64,000 bases of DNA from a virus (IMGVR_UViG_3300031555_002904); one strand, 5' to 3'. Positions 45,515-57,246 are shown, counted from the stretch's first letter. Translations and numbers: made by a program. Notes: generated from the sequence alone by a model not told the origin.

Positions 45515-45570
45515 CAAATCCCCAATTCTATGCTATAATCAAGGTACAAAAACGAAAGGAAATGATGAAG

Positions 45571-45867
45571 ATGAAAGCAACTGGTATCATTCGTAGAGTG
45601 GATGACCTCGGCAGAGTGGTTATCCCCAAGGAAATCCGCAGAACTCTGAAAATCAAAGAGGGCGACCCCCTTGAGATTTATACCGAAAGGGATGCGGTTG
45701 TGTTCAAGAAGTACGGGGTTGACCTCGTTGGTGAGGCTAACTCCCTTTTGGAGAATGTGGTCTGCTATCTCGACGCAGACGCACCCTGCCGTGATGAAGT
45801 GCGGATGGCACTTGAACGGGTAGTTCTCCTGCTGAAGAAACAGAAGAAGGAGGAAGAACAATGGTGA
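45571..45867 (+). CDS. AbrB/SpoVT-family transcription regulator
   Basis: MKATGIIRRVDDLGRVVIPKEIRRTLKIKEGDPLEIY closely resembles the SpoVT/AbrB N-terminal domain. Confidence 0.9.
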   Translation: MKATGIIRRVDDLGRVVIPKEIRRTLKIKEGDPLEIYTERDAVVFKKYGVDLVGEANSLLENVVCYLDADAPCRDEVRMALERVVLLLKKQKKEEEQW

Positions 45868-46097
45868 AGATACTCGACCAGCGCCAAGAGCGCGGTATCC
45901 GCTTCAGCGAGATAAGTAAGGGGCAGACCTTTTGGTCTCCTACTTACCTCTGCTTCATGCTGAAAATTGAAGAGTGCGGTTGCGATGAGTGCGACGGCTT
46001 TGTAAATGCGGTCAGCCTGTCCGAGGGCAGTATCTACGGCATTGAGCCGACCGAAATCGTTGAGCCGTGTCACGCAGAAATCAAAATCTTCAACTGA
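45861..46097 (+). CDS. Small early hypothetical protein
   Basis: AGGAGG SD; followed by terminator hairpin 46096-46122. Confidence 0.7.
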   Translation: MVKILDQRQERGIRFSEISKGQTFWSPTYLCFMLKIEECGCDECDGFVNAVSLSEGSIYGIEPTEIVEPCHAEIKIFN

Positions 46098-46295
46098 GCG
46101 AGGGGTCAAACCCTCGCTTTTTCTATTGAATTTTCGGCCGCGCGCCCACGATTGTCATGGGCGCGAATTTCCATTATACCACAGCCCCAGCAATTTGTCA
46201 ATAGGCAATTTCAACAAAATAATCATCCCACAAAATCCCGAATTTGTGCAACATTACCAGTTGACTTTGTGTGCGGTCTGTGGTATACTATCATT

Positions 46296-46812
46296 GTCAA
46301 GAGGGAACGCAAACTGTGGCGCGAATGTAGCGCCCGATTCAGGAGAAGCGGTACCGACAATAACAGAGCGAAAAAAGTTGAAAAAATTTCAATTTCCCTC
46401 TTGACAAATCACCCAAGTTGTGATACAATAAGGGTGTCAAGGGGGAGGGAAACCCCAATCGAGTATCCTCCCCAGTAGCTCCCTCGCGAAAAGGTGAGAA
46501 AAAGTTGGGAAAACCCCTTGACAAATCCCTTAGAGTGTGATACAATAAGGGTACAAAAGGCGAGGGTAAGGCAACCGCGAAGATGGCGGATTCCCACGAG
46601 AGTATGTAAGACCATTACCCGATGACCCGACCGCAAGGTGTTCCTGTTTGCGGTATACAAATGTGAACCAGACCCCACAGGCTGAAAAAATGTTGGGGAT
46701 ACGCAGGATACAAAAGCCACCACCCCTACTGCGGGAGAAGGAAAACTACCCCGGAAAACCACGAGGTTCTCGCCAAGTATCTTCTCGGAAAAATATAAGA
46801 CTTGGCAAAAAA
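46296..46812 (+). ncRNA. Cluster A: three promoter-driven ORF-less RNA units
   Basis: Promoters at 46261, 46401, 46518 with no SD-ATG gene; third unit ends in hairpin GCCAAGT...ACTTGGC. Confidence 0.5.
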
Positions 46813-46873
46813 AATGCTTGACAAACAAATCAAGTTGTGCTATAATTAGAGCATCAAAGGAAGCCGAAAGGAA

Positions 46874-47491
46874 ATGATTGAAATGGTACACGCAATTCAC
46901 CCCACCCCCACCCTCACAATGCAGGACTACCGCAATGGAAATGACCTTGTTGGTGCATACAAGAGATACCAGTCAGCCACTAAGAATTGGCAAGGTCGTT
47001 GGTGGAAAGTAGTCGAGGACATTTTCAATGCCTGCACCGCCTGGGCAAAATACTTCATCCTTGACCCCATCAAGCGAGAGCTGAAAAAGTTGGGCAGAGG
47101 TCGCATCCCAAATCCTGCCACTCTTGTCAATCACAATCTGATTTTTAATGTTCCGGCAGAGGGTTGCGGTGCTTACATCGTTCAGCATTTCAACAAGAAA
47201 GGCAAGCACCTGTGGATTAAATGCGGAAAGGCTGACGATGCAATCCGCAGACTAAATCAGCATTTCACAGTTGACTACGCAAACGAAGCTGACAGCGGTG
47301 TGGTGCTTGGTTGGTATCCCTGCAAAAATAAAAATCACGCACTCGCTATGGAAGATGTTATCCGTGACCACTTCGAGAAAAAAGGTCTGACCCTCTTGGG
47401 CAATGACCGCTTCCCCGAACTGCGAGAAATCACCGCAGAAGATGTGGCAGAACTCAACCGCAAGGCTGAAATTTTGGCAACGATTTTCTAA
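46874..47491 (+). CDS. GIY-YIG/T5orf172-like domain protein
   Basis: GAYIV...IKCGKADDAIRRLNQH...ALAMEDVIRDHF...GNDRF. Confidence 0.6.
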   Translation: MIEMVHAIHPTPTLTMQDYRNGNDLVGAYKRYQSATKNWQGRWWKVVEDIFNACTAWAKYFILDPIKRELKKLGRGRIPNPATLVNHNLIFNVPAEGCGAYIVQHFNKKGKHLWIKCGKADDAIRRLNQHFTVDYANEADSGVVLGWYPCKNKNHALAMEDVIRDHFEKKGLTLLGNDRFPELREITAEDVAELNRKAEILATIF

Positions 47492-47560
47492 AAATAAGGC
47501 TTGACAAACTCCCAAATCTATGATACAATAACAGTACCAAAAGGAAAGGAACTGAATACT

Positions 47561-47968
47561 ATGGACAGCTTACAAACTATTCTCTACAATGTTTCCGCAG
47601 GTGTGGAACTCTCTCCCTCGCAGGTGCGTGAACTCTCCGCACTGGTTTCCCTCGGCTTCAACACAAGAGGTCGCATCGACAGAGACTACGAACTGCGCTC
47701 CGACATTCTCGCAACAATGCCCCTCGGTGTGCCTCTGCGTGTAAAGGAAATCCAAGCACGCAACGGCAAAGTTGACGACTACTCGGTGCAGAAAGTCGCC
47801 GCCGCACTCAAGGCTCTGGTGTGGGCTGGTGTGGTCGAACGGCAGAAAACCGATGAAGTCGAAAAGGTTACCATTCAGCGGTGGGTTGGTTGGAAGAGGG
47901 GCGTTTCCTCTCCTTACAAGGACGAAGAAATCCTCGTTCCCATCATCAAGTTTGTGCGGATTATCTGA
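47561..47968 (+). CDS. Winged-helix-like DNA-binding protein
   Basis: PLRVKEIQ...YSVQKVAAALKALVWAGVVER, similar to C-termini of 51612 and 55432 proteins. Confidence 0.6.
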   Translation: MDSLQTILYNVSAGVELSPSQVRELSALVSLGFNTRGRIDRDYELRSDILATMPLGVPLRVKEIQARNGKVDDYSVQKVAAALKALVWAGVVERQKTDEVEKVTIQRWVGWKRGVSSPYKDEEILVPIIKFVRII

Positions 47969-48026
47969 AAATGGGGGTTGACAAAACCCCCACAATCTGC
48001 TATAATAATGCCAAGAGGTGAGAACA

Positions 48027-48257
48027 ATGAAAACAGCGGCTCAAATCGCCCAAGAGTGGCAAGCGCAGTTGAGAGACCCGCGCATTCGTTGCCCTAACTG
48101 CGGAAGTAGCGCCCAAGCGGAACTGGTATACCTGGACTCAACAAGCAACCACAAAGACAAAACAGACGAATACATTTGCGGGTGCGGGTGTCGGTTTTCG
48201 GCACGCTTTGCACTCATTCAAACCGACATACTGGAAATCGAAGCGCCCTATCATTAG
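48027..48257 (+). CDS. Small Zn-ribbon protein ending at TAG
   Basis: CPNCG...CGCGC; TAG lies inside terminator-like hairpin GCGCCCTA/TAGGGCGC. Confidence 0.7.
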   Translation: MKTAAQIAQEWQAQLRDPRIRCPNCGSSAQAELVYLDSTSNHKDKTDEYICGCGCRFSARFALIQTDILEIEAPYH

Positions 48258-48432
48258 GGCGCAATTTTCAGCTCAAAATTCGGCGGCGCGCTATCGGTCC
48301 TGGCGCGCCGATTTTCGTCAGAATAACCAACCCCAGGATTTATTTTGGGGAATAATTTGTGCAAATTGATTATTGACAAATCCCATAATGCGTGTTATAA
48401 TTAAGACACAAAGAACAAAGGAGATGCAAACT

Positions 48433-48588
48433 ATGTGGATTTTCGCAGTAATTAGTGCCATTCTTGGCTTAGGATGCATTAGCTATAATCAAGAGAATAA
48501 TGTCAAGCACAACATTCTGCTTGGCTTCGTTGGCTACACCCTTGCGGTGCTTGTACCAGTTGCAATAATTGGCGGATTTTATTTCTAA
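48433..48588 (+). CDS. Small two-TM membrane protein
   Basis: Own promoter, AAAGGAG SD, 51 aa hydrophobic. Confidence 0.65.
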   Translation: MWIFAVISAILGLGCISYNQENNVKHNILLGFVGYTLAVLVPVAIIGGFYF

Positions 48589-48646
48589 AAACCCCTTGAC
48601 AAATAGTAAATGATGTGCTATAATTAAGGTACAAAAAGGAAAGGAA

Positions 48647-49105
48647 ATGAAAACTATGAAGACTATGAACATCACCATCAACTTCGATATGGACGGAACA
48701 ATCGCTGACCTGTACGCAAACCCCAACTGGTTGCCCCTGCTCCGAGCCTACGACCCCACTCCCTACGCAACGGCAAAGCCTCTGCTCCGCTTGTGCGACC
48801 TCGCCCGCAAGCTGAATACTCTCCAGAGAAACGGCTACCGCATTGCGGTAATCAGCTGGCTCAGCAAGGAAAGCACTGCCGAGTATGATGAAGCCGTTAC
48901 CAATGCAAAACTGGAATGGCTTGCAAAGCACCTGCCGAGCGTCAACTGGGACGAAATCACAATCGTTCCCTATGGCACTCCGAAAGAAAATTTCTGCCAC
49001 AACCCCCTTGACATTCTGTTTGACGATGAAGAACGCAACAGAAACAACTGGACGGGCAGAGCCTATGGAGTTGAAAACATCTTGGAAATTCTCAGAGAAA
49101 TCTGA
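48647..49105 (+). CDS. HAD-family phosphatase, 5'(3')-deoxyribonucleotidase-like
   Basis: FDMDGTIADL motif I, K, ILFDD motif IV. Confidence 0.8.
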   Translation: MKTMKTMNITINFDMDGTIADLYANPNWLPLLRAYDPTPYATAKPLLRLCDLARKLNTLQRNGYRIAVISWLSKESTAEYDEAVTNAKLEWLAKHLPSVNWDEITIVPYGTPKENFCHNPLDILFDDEERNRNNWTGRAYGVENILEILREI

Positions 49106-49285
49106 GAATTTTTTTTGTGCATTTTGCCTATTGACTTTTGAGCCGAGCGCGCACGGCCCACGCGCTCGGAATTTGGCATAATAAACAACCCAGGCAATTA
49201 TTTTAGGCAAAACTTTGTGCAATATTCACAATTGACATTTCCCGCAATGTGTGATAGAATACTATCAGAAAGTGAGGCGAGAAGA

Positions 49286-49450
49286 ATGCTGAAACGAGGA
49301 ACTAAGTTCCGCATTGCCCCTTACGGTGTGTGCGTGGTGTCCAGTTACGATGATACCAGCGGTAAATACATTATGAGGGTGTGGAACTCAAGCGAAACTT
49401 TTTACGCAAGTGCGGAAGAAATTGAAAAAAAGTGCTTGACAAACCGTTAA
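49286..49450 (+). CDS. Small early hypothetical protein
   Basis: Own promoter, GTGAGG SD, MLKRGTKFRIAPYG. Confidence 0.6.
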   Translation: MLKRGTKFRIAPYGVCVVSSYDDTSGKYIMRVWNSSETFYASAEEIEKKCLTNR

Positions 49451-49527
49451 ATCTATGATACAATGTACTCACAGTTGAGGGAGCGACGGCAAACCCACAA
49501 CACACTAATGAAACGAGGTAAAGACCA

Positions 49528-50190
49528 ATGAAAACAATGTACGCAACCCTTGATACCGAAACAGTTGGCGGTATCGACCACCCCAAGGGATTTTACAATG
49601 TGGGTGTGGTTATCCACGATAGAGAGGGCAACATCTGTGCGACCACTTCTCTGTTGGTGATGGAGTTCTATGACGAAATCAAGAACGACGACTACGCAAA
49701 GAAGAATTTCCACATCTATGCCGAGCGACTGGCAAGGGGCGAAATCTCCGCAGTTGCCACCGAAGCCGAAGCACTCAACATCGTGCGAAATCTCCTGCGT
49801 TTTTATAATGTCAAGTACATCTGTGCTTACAATTCCGCTTTTGACCTCTGCAAGACCTGTTGCCGTGAGTTGGCTGACGAGTTCCAGTTCATCGACCTTT
49901 GGTTGATGGCATTGCAGACCATTACTCATCAGAAAGGCTATGCCAAGTTCTGTCGAGAGAATGGCTACAAGTCCAAGGGTGGAAAGACTTGTGCCACCTC
50001 TGCCGAAAGTGTGTACGCATACATCAGCGGAAATGGTGAGTACATCGAGGAACACACCGCACTGGCTGACGCACTGATTGAAATGGCAATCTTTGTGCGG
50101 TGTGTCCGCACCCACAAGCACTATACAAAGAATGTGCATTGTTGGGATTGCACCGAGCGAAACAAGGTATTCCCCAAGTGGGCGGTGTAA
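49528..50190 (+). CDS. DEDDh 3'-5' exonuclease
   Basis: LDTETVG (ExoI), AYNSAFD (ExoII), HTALADA (ExoIII). Confidence 0.85.
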   Translation: MKTMYATLDTETVGGIDHPKGFYNVGVVIHDREGNICATTSLLVMEFYDEIKNDDYAKKNFHIYAERLARGEISAVATEAEALNIVRNLLRFYNVKYICAYNSAFDLCKTCCRELADEFQFIDLWLMALQTITHQKGYAKFCRENGYKSKGGKTCATSAESVYAYISGNGEYIEEHTALADALIEMAIFVRCVRTHKHYTKNVHCWDCTERNKVFPKWAV

Positions 50191-50287
50191 CAACCGCCCA
50201 ACCCCCAAAAAAAAGTTGAAAAAACCTCTTGACAAACCGCCAAAAGTGTGCTATAATGAGTTCATCAAAGGAAAGGAACTGATAACT

Positions 50288-50779
50288 ATGAAAAACTTCA
50301 ACTACTCTGTCATCATCACTACCGAGGACAACCGCTTCACCTACGAAACGAATGATGTGCGTGAGGCAATCCGAGCCGTGTTTGAGTGCGACTTCGAGGA
50401 CGCTCACATCTGCATTTGCAACGGCTACACGGGCGAGGTTCTGTACCACAATGGTGAAGAGCCGTGGTGTACCGATGAAATGGCACTGATGATGCTCGGC
50501 TTTGTGGTCGAGCAGGCAGGTGCCGAGGAAGAAGAGGACGAGGACAGCAACCTGCCCACCTGCGGAATGTGCGGTGGTGATGTGGTTAATGGGGTCTGTG
50601 AGTTCTGCGGTCGCAAGGTCGAACCCTACACCGAACGCATCCCCTACATTGGTGAGGTAATGGTTGCTCTTGCCAAGCAGATGGCTGACGAGCTGGGGGT
50701 TGAGGTTATCCCCCTGCCCGGCAGGGACTTGGATGTGTCCCCTTGCTTACTCCCCATTCCCAAGGATCTGCCCTCCTAA
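50288..50779 (+). CDS. Acidic protein with Zn ribbon
   Basis: Own promoter and SD; CGMCGG...CEFCG. Confidence 0.7.
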   Translation: MKNFNYSVIITTEDNRFTYETNDVREAIRAVFECDFEDAHICICNGYTGEVLYHNGEEPWCTDEMALMMLGFVVEQAGAEEEEDEDSNLPTCGMCGGDVVNGVCEFCGRKVEPYTERIPYIGEVMVALAKQMADELGVEVIPLPGRDLDVSPCLLPIPKDLPS

Positions 50780-51076
50780 TGGCTCTTGAGGGGTCGAGCC
50801 AATCGACCCCATCCCACTTGAAAATCCGCTTGGTGGTGCTTGCGGATTAGACAATTCATAATCTCCTTTCTGGCGGTCCGCCACTCCAAAATGGGGTGGC
50901 GGATTGTCGGCTTTTTCGGCGACTCGCTCACGGGCGCGCGAGCCGAAATTTTATTATACCACAGACCCCAGCAATTTGTCAATAGGCAAACCGCACAAAT
51001 AAATCAGCGCAAAATCTCCCATAATTGTGCAACATTACCACTTGCATTTTGGCTCAAGATGTGATAGAATACTATT

Positions 51077-51532
51077 GTCAAGAGGGGACAGCAACTCCCC
51101 ACAGCCGTGAGGTTGAGCCACAGAATGGCGAAAAAAAGTTGAAAAAACCTCTTGACAAACGGCACAAGATGTGCTATAATGAGTATGTCAAGAGGGGACA
51201 GCAACTCCACTCGGTAGGTCGGGTCAAGTTGATGGACAGACCGAAACGAAAAAAAGTTGAAAAAACCTCTTGACAAACCCCACAAAGTGTGGTATAATGA
51301 GTGTGTCAAGAGGGGAACACATCGAGATACTCCCCTATGGATTGGTGGAAACGGAAACACTGCGGATTGAAACCAAGACCCATTGACCAAGTATGTTCGC
51401 CAAAGGGTAGAACGAACGGCAGAATGGTGCGGTAGACTCAGGGCAAGTAAGGACAGAATACAATCCCAATGACGGCATGAGGTCTGTTGTATAATGAAAA
51501 AAGTCCGGAATTTTTTCAGAAAACCTCTTGAC
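51077..51532 (+). ncRNA. Cluster B: three promoter-driven ORF-less RNA units
   Basis: Each begins GTCAAGAGGGGA 7 nt after the -10 box; first two share a 22-nt leader and tail GAAAAAAAGTTGAAAAAA. Confidence 0.55.
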
Positions 51533-51611
51533 AAATTCAACCACTTGTGGTATAATCTAAATGTAATCAAGGACAGGTTCAAGTCCCTAAAACCGAAAGG
51601 AATTGATAACT

Positions 51612-51986
51612 ATGGCTAACACTACCTCTACCCCCAAGCTGACCAAGACTCAGAAGTTCGCTATCATCGCCGAACTGCCCGAGGTCAAGTCCAATCCCAT
51701 GCTGAGCGAGTTCATCGCCCATGAGGTGGAACTGCTCAACAAGAAGAACTCCGCTGAGAAGAAGCCCACCGCTCAGCAGACTGCCAACGAGGGCATCAAG
51801 ACCGCCATTCTGAACGGCATGGAGAGCGGTAAGGCGTACACCGTCACCGAGATCATCAAGTCCGTTCCCGAGTGTGCCGACCTCACCAACCAGCGTGTTT
51901 CCGCTCTGATGCGTCAGATGGTGGAGAGCGGTGCGGTGGTGCGTACCGAGGACAAGCGGAAAGCCTACTTTACCAAGGTAGGCTAA
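51612..51986 (+). CDS. Winged-helix DNA-binding protein, paralogue of 55432-55806
   Basis: YTVTEIIKSVPECADLTNQRVSALMRQMVESGAVVRTEDKRKAYF; strong codon bias. Confidence 0.8.
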   Translation: MANTTSTPKLTKTQKFAIIAELPEVKSNPMLSEFIAHEVELLNKKNSAEKKPTAQQTANEGIKTAILNGMESGKAYTVTEIIKSVPECADLTNQRVSALMRQMVESGAVVRTEDKRKAYFTKVG

Positions 51987-52095
51987 GCCGACCGCCCAAG
52001 GGGGAGAGAAATCTCCCCCACCCACCCCGAAAAAAGTGCTTGACAATCGGGGTAAACTGTGCTATACTGTAAGTACAGAAAGGAAGTGAACCCCG

Positions 52096-52449
52096 ATGGA
52101 AGAGAAAATCCAAAAGCTGATGAAGTCGCTGAACATCAGCCGAGAAGAGGCAATCGACCTCATCGAAGAAGATAAGCGAATCGACAGGGGCGAAAAGTTG
52201 TACGAACTTGACCCCGAACTGGAAAAGGGTGCGAAAAAGGCAAGACAAGCCGACCGCAAGAAGTCCGACACTCCCACCAAGAGAGAGCGAAAGCCGAAAC
52301 CCGAAAAGGCTGAAATCTGCTCCGCTATGATGGCAGGACTTGCGGAACTGGGTGTGGCTGATTTCAACATCACCAACCCCGAGCGAGAGTTCCTATTCAC
52401 CCACAACGGCACGAAGTACAAGGTCACCCTTGCGTGCCCCCGTTCCTAA
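52096..52449 (+). CDS. Hypothetical protein, paralogue of 55905-56273
   Basis: Shared MKxLxxSREEA...EDKxIDRGEK motif. Confidence 0.8.
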   Translation: MEEKIQKLMKSLNISREEAIDLIEEDKRIDRGEKLYELDPELEKGAKKARQADRKKSDTPTKRERKPKPEKAEICSAMMAGLAELGVADFNITNPEREFLFTHNGTKYKVTLACPRS

Positions 52450-52785
52450 GGCTCTCTGAGTGGGGTCGAGCCTATCGACCCCCATCCCAGCGGGGCAGAA
52501 AGAAGACTGCCCAACTGCGGCAAGGGGGTTTTACTGTGGTCGTAGAGCCTAGCCAACCGAATCAAACTCCGAAAAAACTCCCCAGTGTTTGACCACGGCA
52601 CTGGGGAGCGGTTTTGTGCATTTTGACGAAAAATTTGGCCGGGCGCTGACGTGCGTGGCGCCCGGAATTTGCATTATTATACATCCCACACAAATTTTTA
52701 TTCAGAAAAAAAGTTTTACAAAACCCCTTGACAAATCCCGAAAGGTGTGCTATAATTTAGATACAAACCAAGGAGGTAATGACCT

Positions 52786-53001
52786 ATGATGAACTGCTTA
52801 ATCAACCAACTCGACCTGCACCTGCATAACTGCAAAAAGTTCGGTGAGAACCACTTCCCCACCGCCCGCACCTACTTCGACCAAGCTTTTGGTATGTTAC
52901 TGATGGCTTGTGCCTACGACCCCAACAACTGTGCCAAGTATGAACAGCTGTGGAACGAAACCTACAAACCTGCTTTTGAAAAAATAGTTTTCAAAATCTA
53001 A
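52786..53001 (+). CDS. Small early hypothetical protein
   Basis: Own promoter, AGGAGG SD. Confidence 0.7.
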   Translation: MMNCLINQLDLHLHNCKKFGENHFPTARTYFDQAFGMLLMACAYDPNNCAKYEQLWNETYKPAFEKIVFKI

Positions 53002-53101
53002 AAAAAGGGGTTGACAAACCCCACAAAGTATGCTATAATGTAATCACGGTTGGGGGAGCGATGGCAAACCCCCAATACAAAAATGAAATGAGGTAACTAC
53101 T

Positions 53102-53545
53102 ATGTATCGTAACACTTTTTCTCACACTGTCCCCACCATGTTCGCACTGGCAAAGGTAACCGAGCAGTTTCTGCAGAGCCTGCCTGCCGAGTTCACCAAG
53201 AAGCAGTTTGACGAACTGCGTAAGAGTTGCAAGGAACATCCGCTGAGCCTGCAGACCTGCCGCGAGTATGGCTTCATCGTTGTAGCTCGCACCGAGCCTG
53301 CCACCTACACCAAGGAAGAGAGTGTGTGGGTTGACTCCAAGGGTCGCAAGTACAACGAAGAGGAAATGGGTCTGTTTGACCGCAGAGCCATCGCCACTCT
53401 GTTTGACCGCCCGGACTTTGTAGACAGATGGGGTTCTATCTACACTCTGCCTTACCACGAAGAGCCTGTGGAACACGCCTGCGAGCGTAACATCTTCCGT
53501 TTCAATGTGGAAAAGTTCAAGCGTTTTCTCGCAGAAAACGCTTGA
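53102..53545 (+). CDS. Early hypothetical protein
   Basis: Own promoter, GAGG SD; TGA stop inside the next TTGACA. Confidence 0.75.
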   Translation: MYRNTFSHTVPTMFALAKVTEQFLQSLPAEFTKKQFDELRKSCKEHPLSLQTCREYGFIVVARTEPATYTKEESVWVDSKGRKYNEEEMGLFDRRAIATLFDRPDFVDRWGSIYTLPYHEEPVEHACERNIFRFNVEKFKRFLAENA

Positions 53546-53602
53546 CAAATCCCCCAAAGTGTGCTATAATCAAAGTACCAAAAGACGAAAGGAAATGATA
53601 CT

Positions 53603-54028
53603 ATGTTAGAAATCCTGCTCTCTGTACTCATTACTTGGATGGTAATGGGTGCCCTCTACACTTGGAAAGAGGAAACCTGCAACAACACTCTGTGGAACAT
53701 TTTGGACTATGCCATCTCTCTGCCGTGGGTGGTGCTGACGGGTATCTTCATCATCATCTGGTATCCGTTTATGCTGATTTGGAAGTTCATCCGCAACGCA
53801 GTCAAGCCAGTAACCCAAGAGGCTTGGGATAGGGTCAAGATTGAGAAGTATTTCAAGATTGGCAACCTCTACATCTGCTACGACCAAAAGGCAAGAGCAT
53901 TTTGCAACAAGCTGTTCCTTGTGCGAATTGCCAAACCGAGAACCGCAATCGCTCACGACCCTGTGTTGATTGTGATTGATGAGCCGAGTGTTCCCGAGGG
54001 TGAGTTCCGCATTGGCAAGGGGGAGTAA
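53603..54028 (+). CDS. Membrane protein
   Basis: Two hydrophobic segments at N-terminus. Confidence 0.7.
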   Translation: MLEILLSVLITWMVMGALYTWKEETCNNTLWNILDYAISLPWVVLTGIFIIIWYPFMLIWKFIRNAVKPVTQEAWDRVKIEKYFKIGNLYICYDQKARAFCNKLFLVRIAKPRTAIAHDPVLIVIDEPSVPEGEFRIGKGE

Positions 54029-54219
54029 CATCCCCCACAACCCCCATCCGTGTTCGCGGGTGGGGGACATTTTTTGGCCGGCCCTTCACGTACGCGCGGG
54101 CCGGTTTTTCGGCAAAATAACCAGTTTCAACAATTTTTTGGGTAAATCTTTTGTGTAAATTGACACTTGACATTTCCCGTATTTGTGGTATAATACTAAC
54201 AGAAAGTGAGGTAAATAGA

Positions 54220-54693
54220 ATGAATACAAAACTGCTCTTAGTGTTCGTTGTACTGAACATCGCCAATGTCATCATTCAAACTGTAAAATCTATCGCCACT
54301 GTCAAGTGCGGAAAGGCAACCGCCGCAGTTGTCAATGCAGTTGCCTACGGTCTGTATACTATCGTCACTGTCTATTTGATGTGTGAACTTGACCTTTATC
54401 TCAAAGCAGGTATTGTTGCCTTGTGTAACCTTGTCGGTGTCTATGTGGTAAAACTGATTGAGGAAAAGGCACGAAAGGATAAACTGTGGAAAGTGGAAGC
54501 AACCGTTCCTGCCAAGTACCAAGGTGCGGTGCATTTCGATTTGAAAGACATTCCCCACAACTACATTGAGGGTGTCGGCAACTACACCTTATTCAACTTC
54601 TACTGTGCGACCCAAGCCGAGAGTGCGAAAGTCCGTGACATTATCAATCAGTACGAAGCCAAGTACTTTGTGAGTGAAAGCAAGACCCTGTAA
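54220..54693 (+). CDS. Membrane protein, DUF5698/DUF2179-like
   Basis: NVIIQTVKSIATVKCGKATAAVVNAVAYGLY...NLVGVYV plus soluble C-terminal domain. Confidence 0.65.
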   Translation: MNTKLLLVFVVLNIANVIIQTVKSIATVKCGKATAAVVNAVAYGLYTIVTVYLMCELDLYLKAGIVALCNLVGVYVVKLIEEKARKDKLWKVEATVPAKYQGAVHFDLKDIPHNYIEGVGNYTLFNFYCATQAESAKVRDIINQYEAKYFVSESKTL

Positions 54694-54754
54694 AAAGGGT
54701 CTTGACAAACTCAATAATCTGTGCTATAATAACCACAGAAAGGAAGTGAATGAA

Positions 54755-54967
54755 ATGATGAATTTCTTATTTGAAGATACCATCGATGGTGGTTTCTTCT
54801 TTGTACAGTGCAACAGTGTAGAAGAGGCTTACGAAATCATTTGGGAAGAAATCGCTTGCGAACATTCCGGCTTGGTGATGGGGTGTTCCGATGTTCCCGA
54901 CTGGTACGACTATCTCGGTGAGTACACCGACGCACAAACGGAAGCAATGGGATACGACACATTTTGA
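54755..54967 (+). CDS. Small acidic protein
   Basis: Own promoter and SD; terminator at 54966-54990. Confidence 0.7.
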   Translation: MMNFLFEDTIDGGFFFVQCNSVEEAYEIIWEEIACEHSGLVMGCSDVPDWYDYLGEYTDAQTEAMGYDTF

Positions 54968-55162
54968 GCGAGGGGAAACCCTCGCTTTTCCCATTAAGAT
55001 TTGGCGGCCCGCGGACGTATGTGCGCGGGCAGAAATTCCATTATAACAGACCCCCAGCAATTTGTCAAGAGGAAATTTTGCACAAATAATCATTCTGTAA
55101 AATCCCGTTATTTGTGCAAATTACTACTTGCAATTTGCGGTGCGATGTGGTACAATTAAGGA

Positions 55163-55330
55163 GCAATGAGGGTGAGCAACAACGCAGGACAGAGCGAGCC
55201 GAGCGAAAAAAAAGTTGAAAAACCTCTTGACAAATGCCCCAAGATGTGATACAATGTAAGAGCAATGAGGGGAACACCCCAAGCCAAGCGGTTGAAAAAA
55301 AGTTGAAAAAACTTCAAAAAACCTCTTGAC
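55163..55330 (+). ncRNA. Cluster C: two short promoter-driven ORF-less units
   Basis: Both begin GCAATGAGGG and end GAAAAAAAGTTGAAAAA before the next promoter. Confidence 0.45.
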
Positions 55331-55431
55331 AAACCGCACTGAATGTGCTATAATAAGAACACAAAGAGGGAAACCTCTTGTGAATATTACCGACAGGTTC
55401 AAGTCGTAAAAACCGAAAGGAAGTCGATACT

Positions 55432-55806
55432 ATGGCTACTAACACTACCTCTACCCCCAAGCTGACCAAGGCACAGAAGTTTGCTATGCTCCGTGCCATC
55501 CCTGCCGTTGCGGAGAACGCAATGCTGGTCGAGTTTATCGACCACGAGGTCGAGTTGCTGACCAAGAAGAACTCCGCTGACAAGAAGCCCACCGCACAGC
55601 AGGTGCAGAACGCAGGTATCGCCACCGCCATCGTCGAGGGTATGGAACCCAACCGTCTGTACACCGTTACCGAGGTCATCAAGTCCATCCCTGCGTGTGC
55701 TGACCTGACCAATCAGAGGGTGTCCGCCCTGCTCCGCCAGTTGGTCGAGGCTGGCAAGGTCAAGCGTACCGAGGACAAGAGAAAGGCATACTTCTCCCTT
55801 GTCTAA
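55432..55806 (+). CDS. Winged-helix DNA-binding protein, paralogue of 51612-51986
   Basis: Near-identical motifs TTSTPKLTK, KKNSAxKKPTAQQ, DLTNQRVSAL. Confidence 0.8.
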   Translation: MATNTTSTPKLTKAQKFAMLRAIPAVAENAMLVEFIDHEVELLTKKNSADKKPTAQQVQNAGIATAIVEGMEPNRLYTVTEVIKSIPACADLTNQRVSALLRQLVEAGKVKRTEDKRKAYFSLV

Positions 55807-55904
55807 CCCTGCCGAGGGTCGAGGGGGCAATCGCCCCCTCAAAACTCCCTCTTGACAACCTGCCCCAAGTGTGCTGTACTATGTAATGAAAGGGGGCAAC
55901 CACT

Positions 55905-56273
55905 ATGGAAACGCAAGTTGACCGCATTATGAAAAATCTGCGTTGTAGCCGAGAGGAAGCCGAAGCCGTACTTGCCGAGGACAAGAAGATAGACCGAGGG
56001 GAAAAGGTCGATTTTGACTTGACCGACGAGCAACACAAGCAGGCTATGAAGAACGCCAACGCAGGCACACGCACCGCCAAAGAGGGCAAAACCGCACGAA
56101 AAGCACCAGAAAACCCCACAAAAGAGGGTGTAATTGCTAAAATTGCGGAGTTTTTGACCGAAAATGGCTACAATTCCGTCGAAATCACCAACAAAACACG
56201 GCAAATCGCCTTCAAAATTGGTGAAGATGCCTACGAATTGACGCTAATCGCTAAACGCAAGCCGAAAAGTTGA
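55905..56273 (+). CDS. Hypothetical protein, paralogue of 52096-52449
   Basis: Shared motifs; terminator at 56275-56301. Confidence 0.8.
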   Translation: METQVDRIMKNLRCSREEAEAVLAEDKKIDRGEKVDFDLTDEQHKQAMKNANAGTRTAKEGKTARKAPENPTKEGVIAKIAEFLTENGYNSVEITNKTRQIAFKIGEDAYELTLIAKRKPKS

Positions 56274-56474
56274 GAAAAACCGCCTAAAATGGGCGGTTTT
56301 TCGCGTTTTTGTGTAATTTTTTGTGCGGTTTACATAATTTTCGGCCGCCCGCAGACAAATGTCGCGGGCGTTATTTAGCATTTTGCACAACCCAGGCATT
56401 TTTTCAAATCGAATTTTTGTGCACTATTACCACTTGCATTGTCCCGCAATTATGGTATAATACTATTGTCCGAT

Positions 56475-56571
56475 GGGGATGGGCTGGCTAGGAAAGTCAG
56501 AGGATGCTTTGGTCTAAGCCTTCATCCTGCCGAGGGTGTGCAAGGGGGTTCGATTCCCCCCATCTCCACCA
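56475..56571 (+). tRNA. Non-canonical tRNA-like RNA: Ala-type acceptor, CUA in anticodon-position loop
   Basis: GGGGATG/CATCTCC-A-CCA acceptor with G3:U70; T-arm GGGGG-TTCGATT-CCCCC; 6-bp D-like stem; own promoter at 56434-56461. Confidence 0.7.
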
Positions 56572-56640
56572 AAAAAAGTGCTTGACAAATGGCACAAAGT
56601 ATGCTATAATAAGTTCATCAAATGAAGGAGATTGATACCC

Positions 56641-57246
56641 ATGAGAAACATTAAACTTTTCGAGCGTGAGTTGGCGCTCATCGTAAATGAAGACCTGCGC
56701 ATGGCTACCAAGTCTTATCTGGAAGAAGCCACACCTGACTACTTTTGGACGGACGGCGCATCCAGTTCCGGCAAGTATCATCCGAAGTTCGCCCACGGCA
56801 TCGGCGGTACTATTCGCCACACCAAGGCAGTTGTGATGTTTGCAGAAGAGTTGCTCCGCATGAGTTCCTATGCGTACATGAGAGCAGAGTACAAGGATTA
56901 TGTCATTGTCGCCTGCCTTATCCACGACACGAACAAGTACGGCATCAAGGACTTTGACAAGTCCCAGTACGCAGACCATGCACGAAACGCCGCCGAGAGT
57001 TTCACCCATTGGTGCGAGGAACAGTACGGATTTACTCCCCATTTCTTGCTGACAAATGCGGTTGCAAGCCACATGGGGCAGTGGTCTACCGACAGAGAGG
57101 ACAGACCTTTTACTTCCGTAGACAGATGTGTTCACATGGCGGACTACATGGCAAGCCGTTCTTTCATCGACATTCCTGCAATCAGCGAGGAATACAGCAC
57201 GATTGCGTGCGAATGGGCGGCTCAAAACCACGAACTGCCTTTCTAA
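56641..57246 (+). CDS. HD-domain phosphohydrolase
   Basis: ASSSGKYHP...RHT...LIHDTNKYG...SHMGQW...VHMADYMASR. Confidence 0.85.
   Translation: MRNIKLFERELALIVNEDLRMATKSYLEEATPDYFWTDGASSSGKYHPKFAHGIGGTIRHTKAVVMFAEELLRMSSYAYMRAEYKDYVIVACLIHDTNKYGIKDFDKSQYADHARNAAESFTHWCEEQYGFTPHFLLTNAVASHMGQWSTDREDRPFTSVDRCVHMADYMASRSFIDIPAISEEYSTIACEWAAQNHELPF

Follow-up and report, generated by a model that had tools for sequence, protein, structure and literature searches.

The early region of the virus IMGVR_UViG_3300031555_002904 contains tandem promoters that follow one another at short distances with no gene between them, which raises the question of what the segments from one promoter to the next are for. 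These segments lie in a stretch of 64,000 nucleotides (nt), hereafter the window, which is the reverse complement of positions 11579-75578 in an IMG/VR virus record of 176,574 bp (~92% complete by estimate; phage genome at least 176 kb). The record containing the window is called G000, relative genomes are numbered from G001 onwards, and loci of relatives carry L-numbers. Five of the gene-less units begin with a sequence that pairs, as RNA, with the flank of the next promoter, so that a helix (the clamp) joins the two ends of each unit. We read the gene-less units as transcribed structured RNA modules of the early programme, which would persist and act as RNAs, and give this reading a probability of about one half.

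The promoters, about 35 on the + strand of the early region (42.7-56.7 kb), have a near-consensus sigma-A form (TTGACAAA-N10-TGTGnTATAAT). By a strict pattern there are 25 of them, all on the + strand and within 42.7-56.7 kb, and none elsewhere in the 176 kb; a looser scan of 45900-56700 returned 40 promoter-like sites, where shuffled sequence gave 10.2 ± 3.1, and 18 of the 40 are perfect 12/12 matches with TG. Three clusters, A (46261-46846), B (51042-51556) and C (55128-55354), hold three to four tandem promoters each, 99-300 nt apart and without a Shine–Dalgarno (SD)-ATG gene between them. The units are as follows.

46296..46405, + strand: unit A1, 110 nt, with a 12-bp clamp GUCAAGAGGGAA/UUCCCUCUUGAC
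46436..46522, + strand: unit A2, 87 nt, with a 9-bp clamp GUCAAGGGG/CCCCUUGAC in a co-varying GGGG/CCCC form
46553..46822, + strand: unit A3, ~270 nt, non-coding, without a clamp, beginning ACAAAAGGCGAGGG
51077..51156, + strand: unit B1, 80 nt, with a clamp GUCAAGAGG/CCUCUUGAC followed by GG-ACAGCAA
51187..51274, + strand: unit B2, 88 nt, with a 22-nt leader identical to that of B1 and a different inner hairpin
51305..51532, + strand: unit B3, 228 nt, clamped, non-coding
55163..55231, + strand: unit C1 (GCAAUGAGGG...), with a degenerate clamp of 6/9 pairs
55262..55330, + strand: unit C2 (GCAAUGAGGGG...), with a degenerate clamp

The units starting at 46296, 46436, 51077, 51187 and 51305 had been singled out in a sequence-only reading of the window as promoter-driven small RNAs, and their coordinates, sequences and lack of an SD-ATG gene all check out. 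In each of the five, the +1 G is the seventh base after the -10 box; the unit opens with GUCAAG(A/G)GG and closes with CC(U/C)CUUGAC, which is the -39 to -31 segment of the next promoter. The pairing of starts with unit closings that was claimed there is likewise present, with 12 bp between 46296 and 46394-46405 (a 3' strand that overlaps the -35 of promoter 46401) and GGGG/CCCC at 46436/46514, as is the common leader of 51077 and 51187 before two different stems. Units 55163 and 55262 (GCAATGAGGG) had been called related, and their kinship with the clamp units is supported by covariance-model scores of 33.2 and 28 bits (E 3e-4 for C2), with the clamp itself reduced to 6/9 pairs. The C1 match spans 55064-55231 and so includes the GTCAAGAGG at 55064.

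Is the clamp a real RNA helix? Relatives were obtained via the winged-helix protein encoded downstream of the clusters (21 IMG/VR loci and 80 metagenome loci). An IMG/VR pattern scan was also used; among the matches listed, part are due to chance, and its units were kept only if they passed a filter for both an own and a next promoter. In the window and 12 non-redundant loci, the 4-mer just before the -35 is CCYC (CCTC or CCCC) at 16/17 promoters preceded by a GTCARRRGG unit and at 29/225 others; at the units' own promoters, this 4-mer is variable. The partner is thus the flank of the next promoter and not that of the unit's own. The most informative position is pair 7 of the clamp, which was A-U in 29, G-C in 20, G.U in 3 and AxC in 2 cases (Fisher p = 1e-9), in a test that drew on 75 non-redundant units picked irrespective of pairing. 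Eight contigs contain both pair-7 types, mostly matched to their own partners. When 51 short units were aligned, pairing was seen in 96.5% of the clamp cells (AU 27, GC 17, GU 3 and other 4 at pair 7), and 0/500 shuffles reached the covariation score of the alignment. An independent metagenome set of 59 units replicates the covariation (34/18/4/3 in the same order), so that the pairing is upheld by the comparison across relatives which the sequence-only reading had proposed as a check.

Exceptions to pairing were counted manually as ~12 of G.U type against ~5 AxC, which favours RNA of the + strand. The clamp extends to 10-13 bp in some units, including the 12 bp of unit 46296, and is part of the minimum-free-energy (MFE) structure in 26/26 short units, with z between -1.4 and -5.5. 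The units of the window are structurally stable: A1 has an MFE of -37.1 (z -5.2; 45.9 bits with the covariance model), and the z values of A2, B1 and B2 are -3.1, -4.1 and -4.2 (51, 59.8 and 61.4 bits, respectively). Among non-redundant GTCARRRGG starts, 126/190 clamp to the next -35. In L095, 23 nt separate the 3' strand of the clamp from the -35 downstream of it; the helix therefore exists without promoter overlap. Given this enrichment, covariation, replication, strand bias and folding, we take the clamp helix to be real and to form at the level of RNA.

The same observations bear on a reading at the DNA level, in which GTCAAGRGG and CCYCTTGAC would be half-sites of an operator or would delimit a mobile promoter cassette, with the winged-helix paralogues, for instance, binding them in a feedback on the promoters. 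Inverted repeats do flank the promoters, winged-helix genes follow clusters B and C, and a separate inverted repeat (TGCAA-N9-TTGCA) overlaps the first promoters. The spacing of the arms, however, ranges from ~50 to 280 nt, the exceptions are mostly G.U-compatible on the + strand, and the partner is the flank of the next promoter, own-promoter pairs matching in only 4/8 internal promoters with a CCYC flank. Moreover, the units have unrelated interiors, which copies of a mobile element would not. We consider this reading very improbable, and the RNA/operator feedback suggested by the sequence-only reading is not borne out by arm spacing, exceptions or partner. An antisense terminator, formed by own-promoter flanks as a minus-strand hairpin with a U-run, was also considered and rejected, since own pairs match in 4/8 cases and next-promoter pairs in >90%.

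Between the two strands of the clamp lies a variable body. In presumed inner stems of close homologues, both sides have changed from C-G to U-A, by our own reading, between L010 and L008 and between the B2 ortholog (L184:491-578) and window unit 51187; the ortholog carries AGAACAA in place of ACAGCAA. Unit B3 has conserved blocks across six metagenomic homologues (alignment A2), where 9/40 predicted pairs still pair after changes on both sides. The terminal palindrome of this unit, GAAAAAAGUCCGGAAUUUUUUC, also still pairs after both-sided changes. The long units 46553-46822 and 51305-51532 share the motifs GAGAGUAUGUAAGACC and GGCAAGUAAGGAC with long units of relatives, and starts resembling that of A3 occur in L005 and L079 (by eye). 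A second helix, between the segment after the clamp and the A-rich tail, is marginal (10.89 vs 10.31 ± 0.27), and tail palindromes occur upstream of all promoter classes and do not discriminate between them. The near-identical copies L171 and L172 display no microdiversity.

The A-rich tail itself had been described as a GAAAAA(A)GTTG feature of the RNAs, a claim that does not stand. The AAAAAAAAGTTGAAAAAACCTC tail with CCTC also precedes the protein-gene promoter 50229, where no GTCAAGAGG partner exists, which makes the tail a feature of promoters and not an RNA tail specific to the units. A-runs are found at ~-40 to -47 before most promoters here, and the tail consensus is given by alignment A1. 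The "GAAAAAAGTTG tail" (GAAAAAAGTTGAAAAAA) is better read, on sequence grounds, as a part of the next promoter, namely its upstream A-tract (a UP-type, curved-DNA element), which is transcribed within the unit.

The bodies also speak to the proposal of guide or decoy cassettes, in which the variable middle would set a target, as in mimics of CRISPR repeats or VIPR-type guides. Constant ends, a variable middle, several copies and a promoter for each are what such a system would have. The vrRNA of VIPR consists of 9-16 tandem YNNGG (GGY/NN) repeats (bioRxiv 10.64898/2026.04.26.720920), whereas no run of at least four GGYNN repeats occurs in the window. In addition, the middles are folded hairpins and not open spacers, and their longest matches in the phage genome are 12-15 nt (E >= 0.02), at chance level. 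We consider guides or decoys very improbable as well. Of the small-RNA cassette put forward in the sequence-only reading, the constant 5' end, the variable middle and the closing helix remain, while its guide function finds no above-chance matches of the middles in the 176-kb genome.

The family is widely distributed: IMG/VR, metagenomes and one GenBank phage together contain at least 116 distinct members, and where this is checkable no member is annotated as RNA. With model R1, 4/5 complete relatives have matches on one strand, clustered within ~15 kb. The GenBank phage phAss-1 carries clamp units that are not annotated as RNA; this published gut phage recodes TAG and is predicted to infect Clostridia, and promoters and non-coding RNAs are not mentioned in its description (PMC10607447). 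The search for a known RNA family, which had been suggested as a check, yielded no Rfam match for the units in 46000-56700, either at the gathering score or at E <= 10, nor one for the long units 46553-46822 and 51305-51532. The units are uncatalogued structured RNA modules. Neither Rfam nor the phAss-1 paper nor our literature searches yielded a description of a helix that links +1 with the flank of the next -35, and searches on RNase III sites of SP82 and on small RNAs from tandem promoters brought up nothing directly relevant. Taken singly, early promoters in tandem, upstream A-tracts and small RNAs with paired ends are already known.

From these features, we infer expression, read-through, processing, stability and any trans-acting function of the units, along the following lines. 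The host sigma-A RNA polymerase would start at the G of GUCAAGRGG, copy first the variable body, rich in hairpins, and then the A-rich element ahead of the next promoter, and run through the -39 to -31 segment (CCYCUUGAC) of that promoter. The 5' end and the CCYCUUGAC segment would then form a clamp of 9-13 bp, making the unit an independent domain with both ends paired. In Firmicutes-type hosts, such a clamp would shield the RNA from 5'-end-dependent decay by RNase J1 and block 3' exonucleases. Cleavage in the unstructured promoter-core linker of ~35 nt would release each unit, which could persist as a stable small RNA, like the tRNA-like RNAs in the same slots. In this scheme the RNA would itself be the product, binding, for example, a protein of the host or the phage as its partner or its sponge. 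Our analysis thus takes the units to be, most likely, early, exonuclease-protected RNA modules.

Several points weigh against this view. The bodies change fast between relatives, those of the short units of the window and of L008 being unrelated, a pattern that functionless spacers would show as well. Since the -35 hexamer dictates five of the nine clamp pairs, covariation on both sides comes down to one pair plus the extensions of 10-13 bp. No partner protein is tied to the clamp family. Finally, clusters A-C are without a detected + strand terminator; the units could simply remain 5' leaders of the downstream mRNAs, and discrete RNAs would need processing. The promoters and terminators concerned are listed below.

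46096..46119, + strand: intrinsic terminator of the upstream operon at the left edge of cluster A, hairpin and T-run
46173..46201, - strand: antisense consensus promoter directed away from cluster A, 12/12 match with TG
46261..46289, + strand: cluster A promoter 1, TTGACT-17-TATACT, with the TTGTGCAA motif just upstream
46401..46429, + strand: cluster A promoter 2
46518..46546, + strand: cluster A promoter 3
46818..46846, + strand: last promoter of cluster A, driving gene 46874-47491
50870..50910, + strand: intrinsic terminator at the left edge of cluster B
50953..50982, - strand: antisense consensus promoter upstream of cluster B
51042..51070, + strand: cluster B promoter 1, TTGCAT-17-TAGAAT, with the inverted repeat TGCAA-N9-TTGCA across the -35
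51152..51180, + strand: cluster B promoter 2
51270..51298, + strand: cluster B promoter 3
51528..51556, + strand: last promoter of cluster B, driving the winged-helix gene
55040..55068, - strand: antisense consensus promoter upstream of cluster C
55128..55156, + strand: cluster C promoter 1, TTGCAA-17-TACAAT
55227..55255, + strand: cluster C promoter 2
55326..55354, + strand: last promoter of cluster C, ahead of the winged-helix paralogue 55432-55806
56434..56461, + strand: first-type promoter of cluster D, TTGCAT-16-TATAAT, behind terminator 56274-56302

Terminator-like sites on the + strand, with at least 8 pairs, occur only at 46096, 48284, 48331, 50870, 52578, 52639, 54041 and 56274, and the search detected none within clusters A-C, an intrinsic terminator being a GC-rich hairpin with a U-tract behind it. 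All promoters of a cluster would thus feed the downstream gene, which lends itself to another account. The units may be cis-acting leader or stabiliser modules of the tandem early promoters, their bodies being spacers and not trans-acting small RNAs. The array would load many polymerases, as A1-A3 of T7 do, the transcript of each promoter would require a paired 5' end as a stabiliser, and the cheapest partner for that end would be the RNA copy of the next -35. In Bacillus, a paired 5' end protects mRNA from RNase J1, as in the ermC and aprE leaders.

Consistent with this account, each of the winged-helix mRNA leaders opens, by eye, with a local hairpin that is again composed of the AAGAGG/CCUCUU words. 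In the window, the mRNA leader from promoter 55326..55354 starts at 55361 with CACAAAGAGG-GAAA-CCUCUUGUG; G001 has GUCAGGAGGGC-AAA-GCCCUC, and further examples are found in L001, L012 and L017. The clamp may thus be an expanded form of a 5'-terminal protective hairpin. Minimal units of 51-57 nt and the poor conservation of bodies between distant relatives point the same way. On the other hand, bodies of 80-280 nt are strongly structured, some with conserved blocks and both-sided changes, a local hairpin would stabilise the transcript without any cargo, and the same slots carry tRNA-like or tRNA cargo, that is, trans-acting products. Pure leader modules are for us a possible account, though a less probable one than RNA modules with a role of their own.

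The slot equivalents and the genes next to them are the following.

51612..51986, + strand: winged-helix-like protein of 124 aa with a weak BlaI/MecI-type match, paralogue at 55432-55806
52096..52449, + strand: partner gene for proteins of 117-122 aa of no known family, paralogue at 55905-56273
56475..56571, + strand: tRNA-like RNA resembling the tRNA-like domain (TLD) of tmRNA, 97 nt, with a CCA end (GGGGAUG...CAUCUCCACCA) and its own promoter

The tRNA-like gene 56475-56571 sits in cluster D in a clamp-unit slot, behind the same type of first promoter, an equivalence that the sequence-only reading had recognised. It aligns with the acceptor and T-arm of the Rfam tmRNA model (38.9 bits, E 7.7e-13, under the gathering score of 47) and was not called by ARAGORN, which found no tRNA genes in the window or in G000. 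Among relatives, L098 has a tRNA as cargo and L133 a CCA-ended tRNA-like RNA, both by sequence reading and without a tRNA caller. The two-gene module of winged-helix-like protein and partner is duplicated (51612-52449 and 55432-56273), and public assemblies contain the exact 124-aa winged-helix protein in 27 sample blocks, two copies of which carry the whole of cluster B.

Units 51077 and 51187 suggest a more specific role. Both have a 9-bp end-joining helix followed by 2 nt (GG) and ACAGCAA, and they are the sole clean stem-plus-ACAGCAA sites in the 176-kb record; the relative L013/L014 has the same handle. They might be 'clamp helix + ACAGCAA' handle RNAs, that is, Y-RNA-like partners of a Ro60-like DUF2828 protein which resemble the Class I RNAs of Dictyostelium, themselves defined by a short end-joining stem and a conserved motif beside its 5' strand (PMC7919456). 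A DUF2828 gene is encoded in G000 (G000:C1:175793-176557, cut by the contig end), and such genes are present in G000-G003 and G007-G009. In the complete relative G001, an array of 28 tRNAs including a CUA suppressor lies just upstream of DUF2828, with ACAGCAA words beside apparent closing stems; the missing ~8% of G000 probably holds the tRNA array, which would explain why G000 has no more than a chance number (18) of ACAGCAA words. Across the clamp family, however, the exact motif is found in only 3/116 clamped units (51077, 51187 and L013), the usual consensus after the clamp being the purine-rich RGARRR(C)AA(C). The B2 ortholog has AGAACAA at this position, as stated above. Neither RF01414 (Class I RNA) nor RF02553 (YrlA) gave a match at E <= 10 in 46000-56700, RtcB is not present, and phAss-1 has clamp units while lacking DUF2828. 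Membership of 51077 and 51187 in an ACAGCAA handle family is unproven, and we regard the proposal as unlikely.

Comparison with known systems places the RNA modules more precisely. In T7 (A1-A2-A3) and in the host-takeover region of SPO1/SP82, tandem host-type early promoters are accompanied by upstream A-tract or UP-type elements. The present clusters are alike in their strong host promoters ~100-130 bp apart, gene-free in between and heading early operons, and in their A-tracts at ~-40 to -60, whatever lies upstream. They differ in that the segments between promoters hold a co-varying helix from +1 to the next -35 and structured, partly conserved bodies; we know of no such clamp in T7 or SPO1. 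The known 5' stabilisers of Bacillus (ermC, aprE and SP82 early RNA) are local hairpins. The clamp shares with them the paired first nucleotide and the purine-rich, SD-like AAGAGG, but its partner is 50-280 nt away, inside the next promoter.

Among end-paired RNAs, Class I RNAs (RF01414) have in common with the units the end-joining helix, the conserved 5' G and the variable body, and a motif beside the 5' strand has its counterpart in the ACAGCAA of 51077 and 51187, 2 nt after the helix; here, by contrast, there is no covariance-model match, the exact heptamer is confined to 3/116 units and is lost in an ortholog, and the 3' strand is fixed by the promoter. Y RNAs (YrlA, RF02553; bound by Ro60/Rsr) are similar in the end-joined stem, the modular body, a Ro60-like (DUF2828) gene in the genome of the window and the tRNA-like cargo in some sister units, and dissimilar in that there is no model match, no tRNA-like domain in the units of the window, no RtcB and, in phAss-1, no DUF2828 beside the units. 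The species 1 and 2 RNAs of T4 lie in a tRNA operon and are released by tRNA-processing enzymes. The units resemble these RNAs in being phage-encoded and end-paired and in sharing slots with tRNAs, and are distinguished from them by having, each, its own promoter in the early region.

Other features of the array are worth recording. The first promoters of the clusters have a weaker -35 (TTGCAT or TTGCAA) under a conserved TTGTGCAA-N8-9-TTGCA, with the inverted repeat TGCAA/TTGCA; sites of the TTGTGCAA type are found at 46244-46266, 49215-49237, 51025-51047, 55110-55133 and 56413-56439. From its sequence, this repeat looks operator-like, possibly for the winged-helix proteins encoded downstream. 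Each of clusters A-C is preceded by a strong terminator and an antisense promoter. Promoter 46173..46201 transcribes into a GC-rich hairpin at ~46137-46165, and the three perfect antisense promoters on the minus strand (46129-46201, 50920-50982 and 54996-55068) all run into a variable GC-rich hairpin beside the upstream terminator. In relatives (e.g., L005:4652 and L008:5090), convergent promoters stand on both sides of the same GC-rich hairpin. The spacers of promoters 51152-51180, 51270-51298 and 55326-55354 contain the reverse complement of their own TGTGn, for example GCACA-AGA-TGTGC (by eye); a strict 5-nt test for it was positive in 3/8 internal promoters and in 2/214 others in the window and the 12 loci.

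Positions 1-40000 of the window (minus strand, ~32% G+C) have frames of 3133 aa, 1986 aa and others that are open only with TAG as an amino acid, and it is the late and structural genes that need this reading. The early region (42.7-58 kb, + strand) has ~47% G+C and uses the standard code; its genes include an AbrB/MazE-type (SpoVT-AbrB) DNA-binding protein (45565-45867) and an HD-domain protein (56632-57246). The nearest relatives of the structural proteins are found in phage phAss-1, roughly 160-kb Bacillus siphoviruses and Lactococcus phages, and a megablast of the region against GenBank phages gave no match.

Hardly any work has addressed the RNAs of large Clostridia gut phages, among them the 'code 15' group with its recoded stop codon. 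In the present phage, much of the early region consists of non-coding, promoter-driven, end-clamped modules, in which one helix strand is at the same time the sequence that flanks the next -35. A bolder claim, which we put forward as doubtful, is that such "promoter-embedded clamp RNAs" are a widespread early RNA class of gut Clostridia-type phages, TAG-recoding ones included, with a role in host takeover and a fold that is completed by running through the next promoter. If this is true, RNA maturation would be coupled to promoter traffic, since only polymerases that pass the next promoter finish the fold, and the infected cell would contain abundant nuclease-resistant RNAs, for example sponges for a host RNA-binding protein, an RNase or the ribosome. 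If the modules are only leaders, they would represent a new way to protect early transcripts. If they do accumulate, they would be candidate host-takeover factors and, at the same time, a compact natural design for stable RNA expression.

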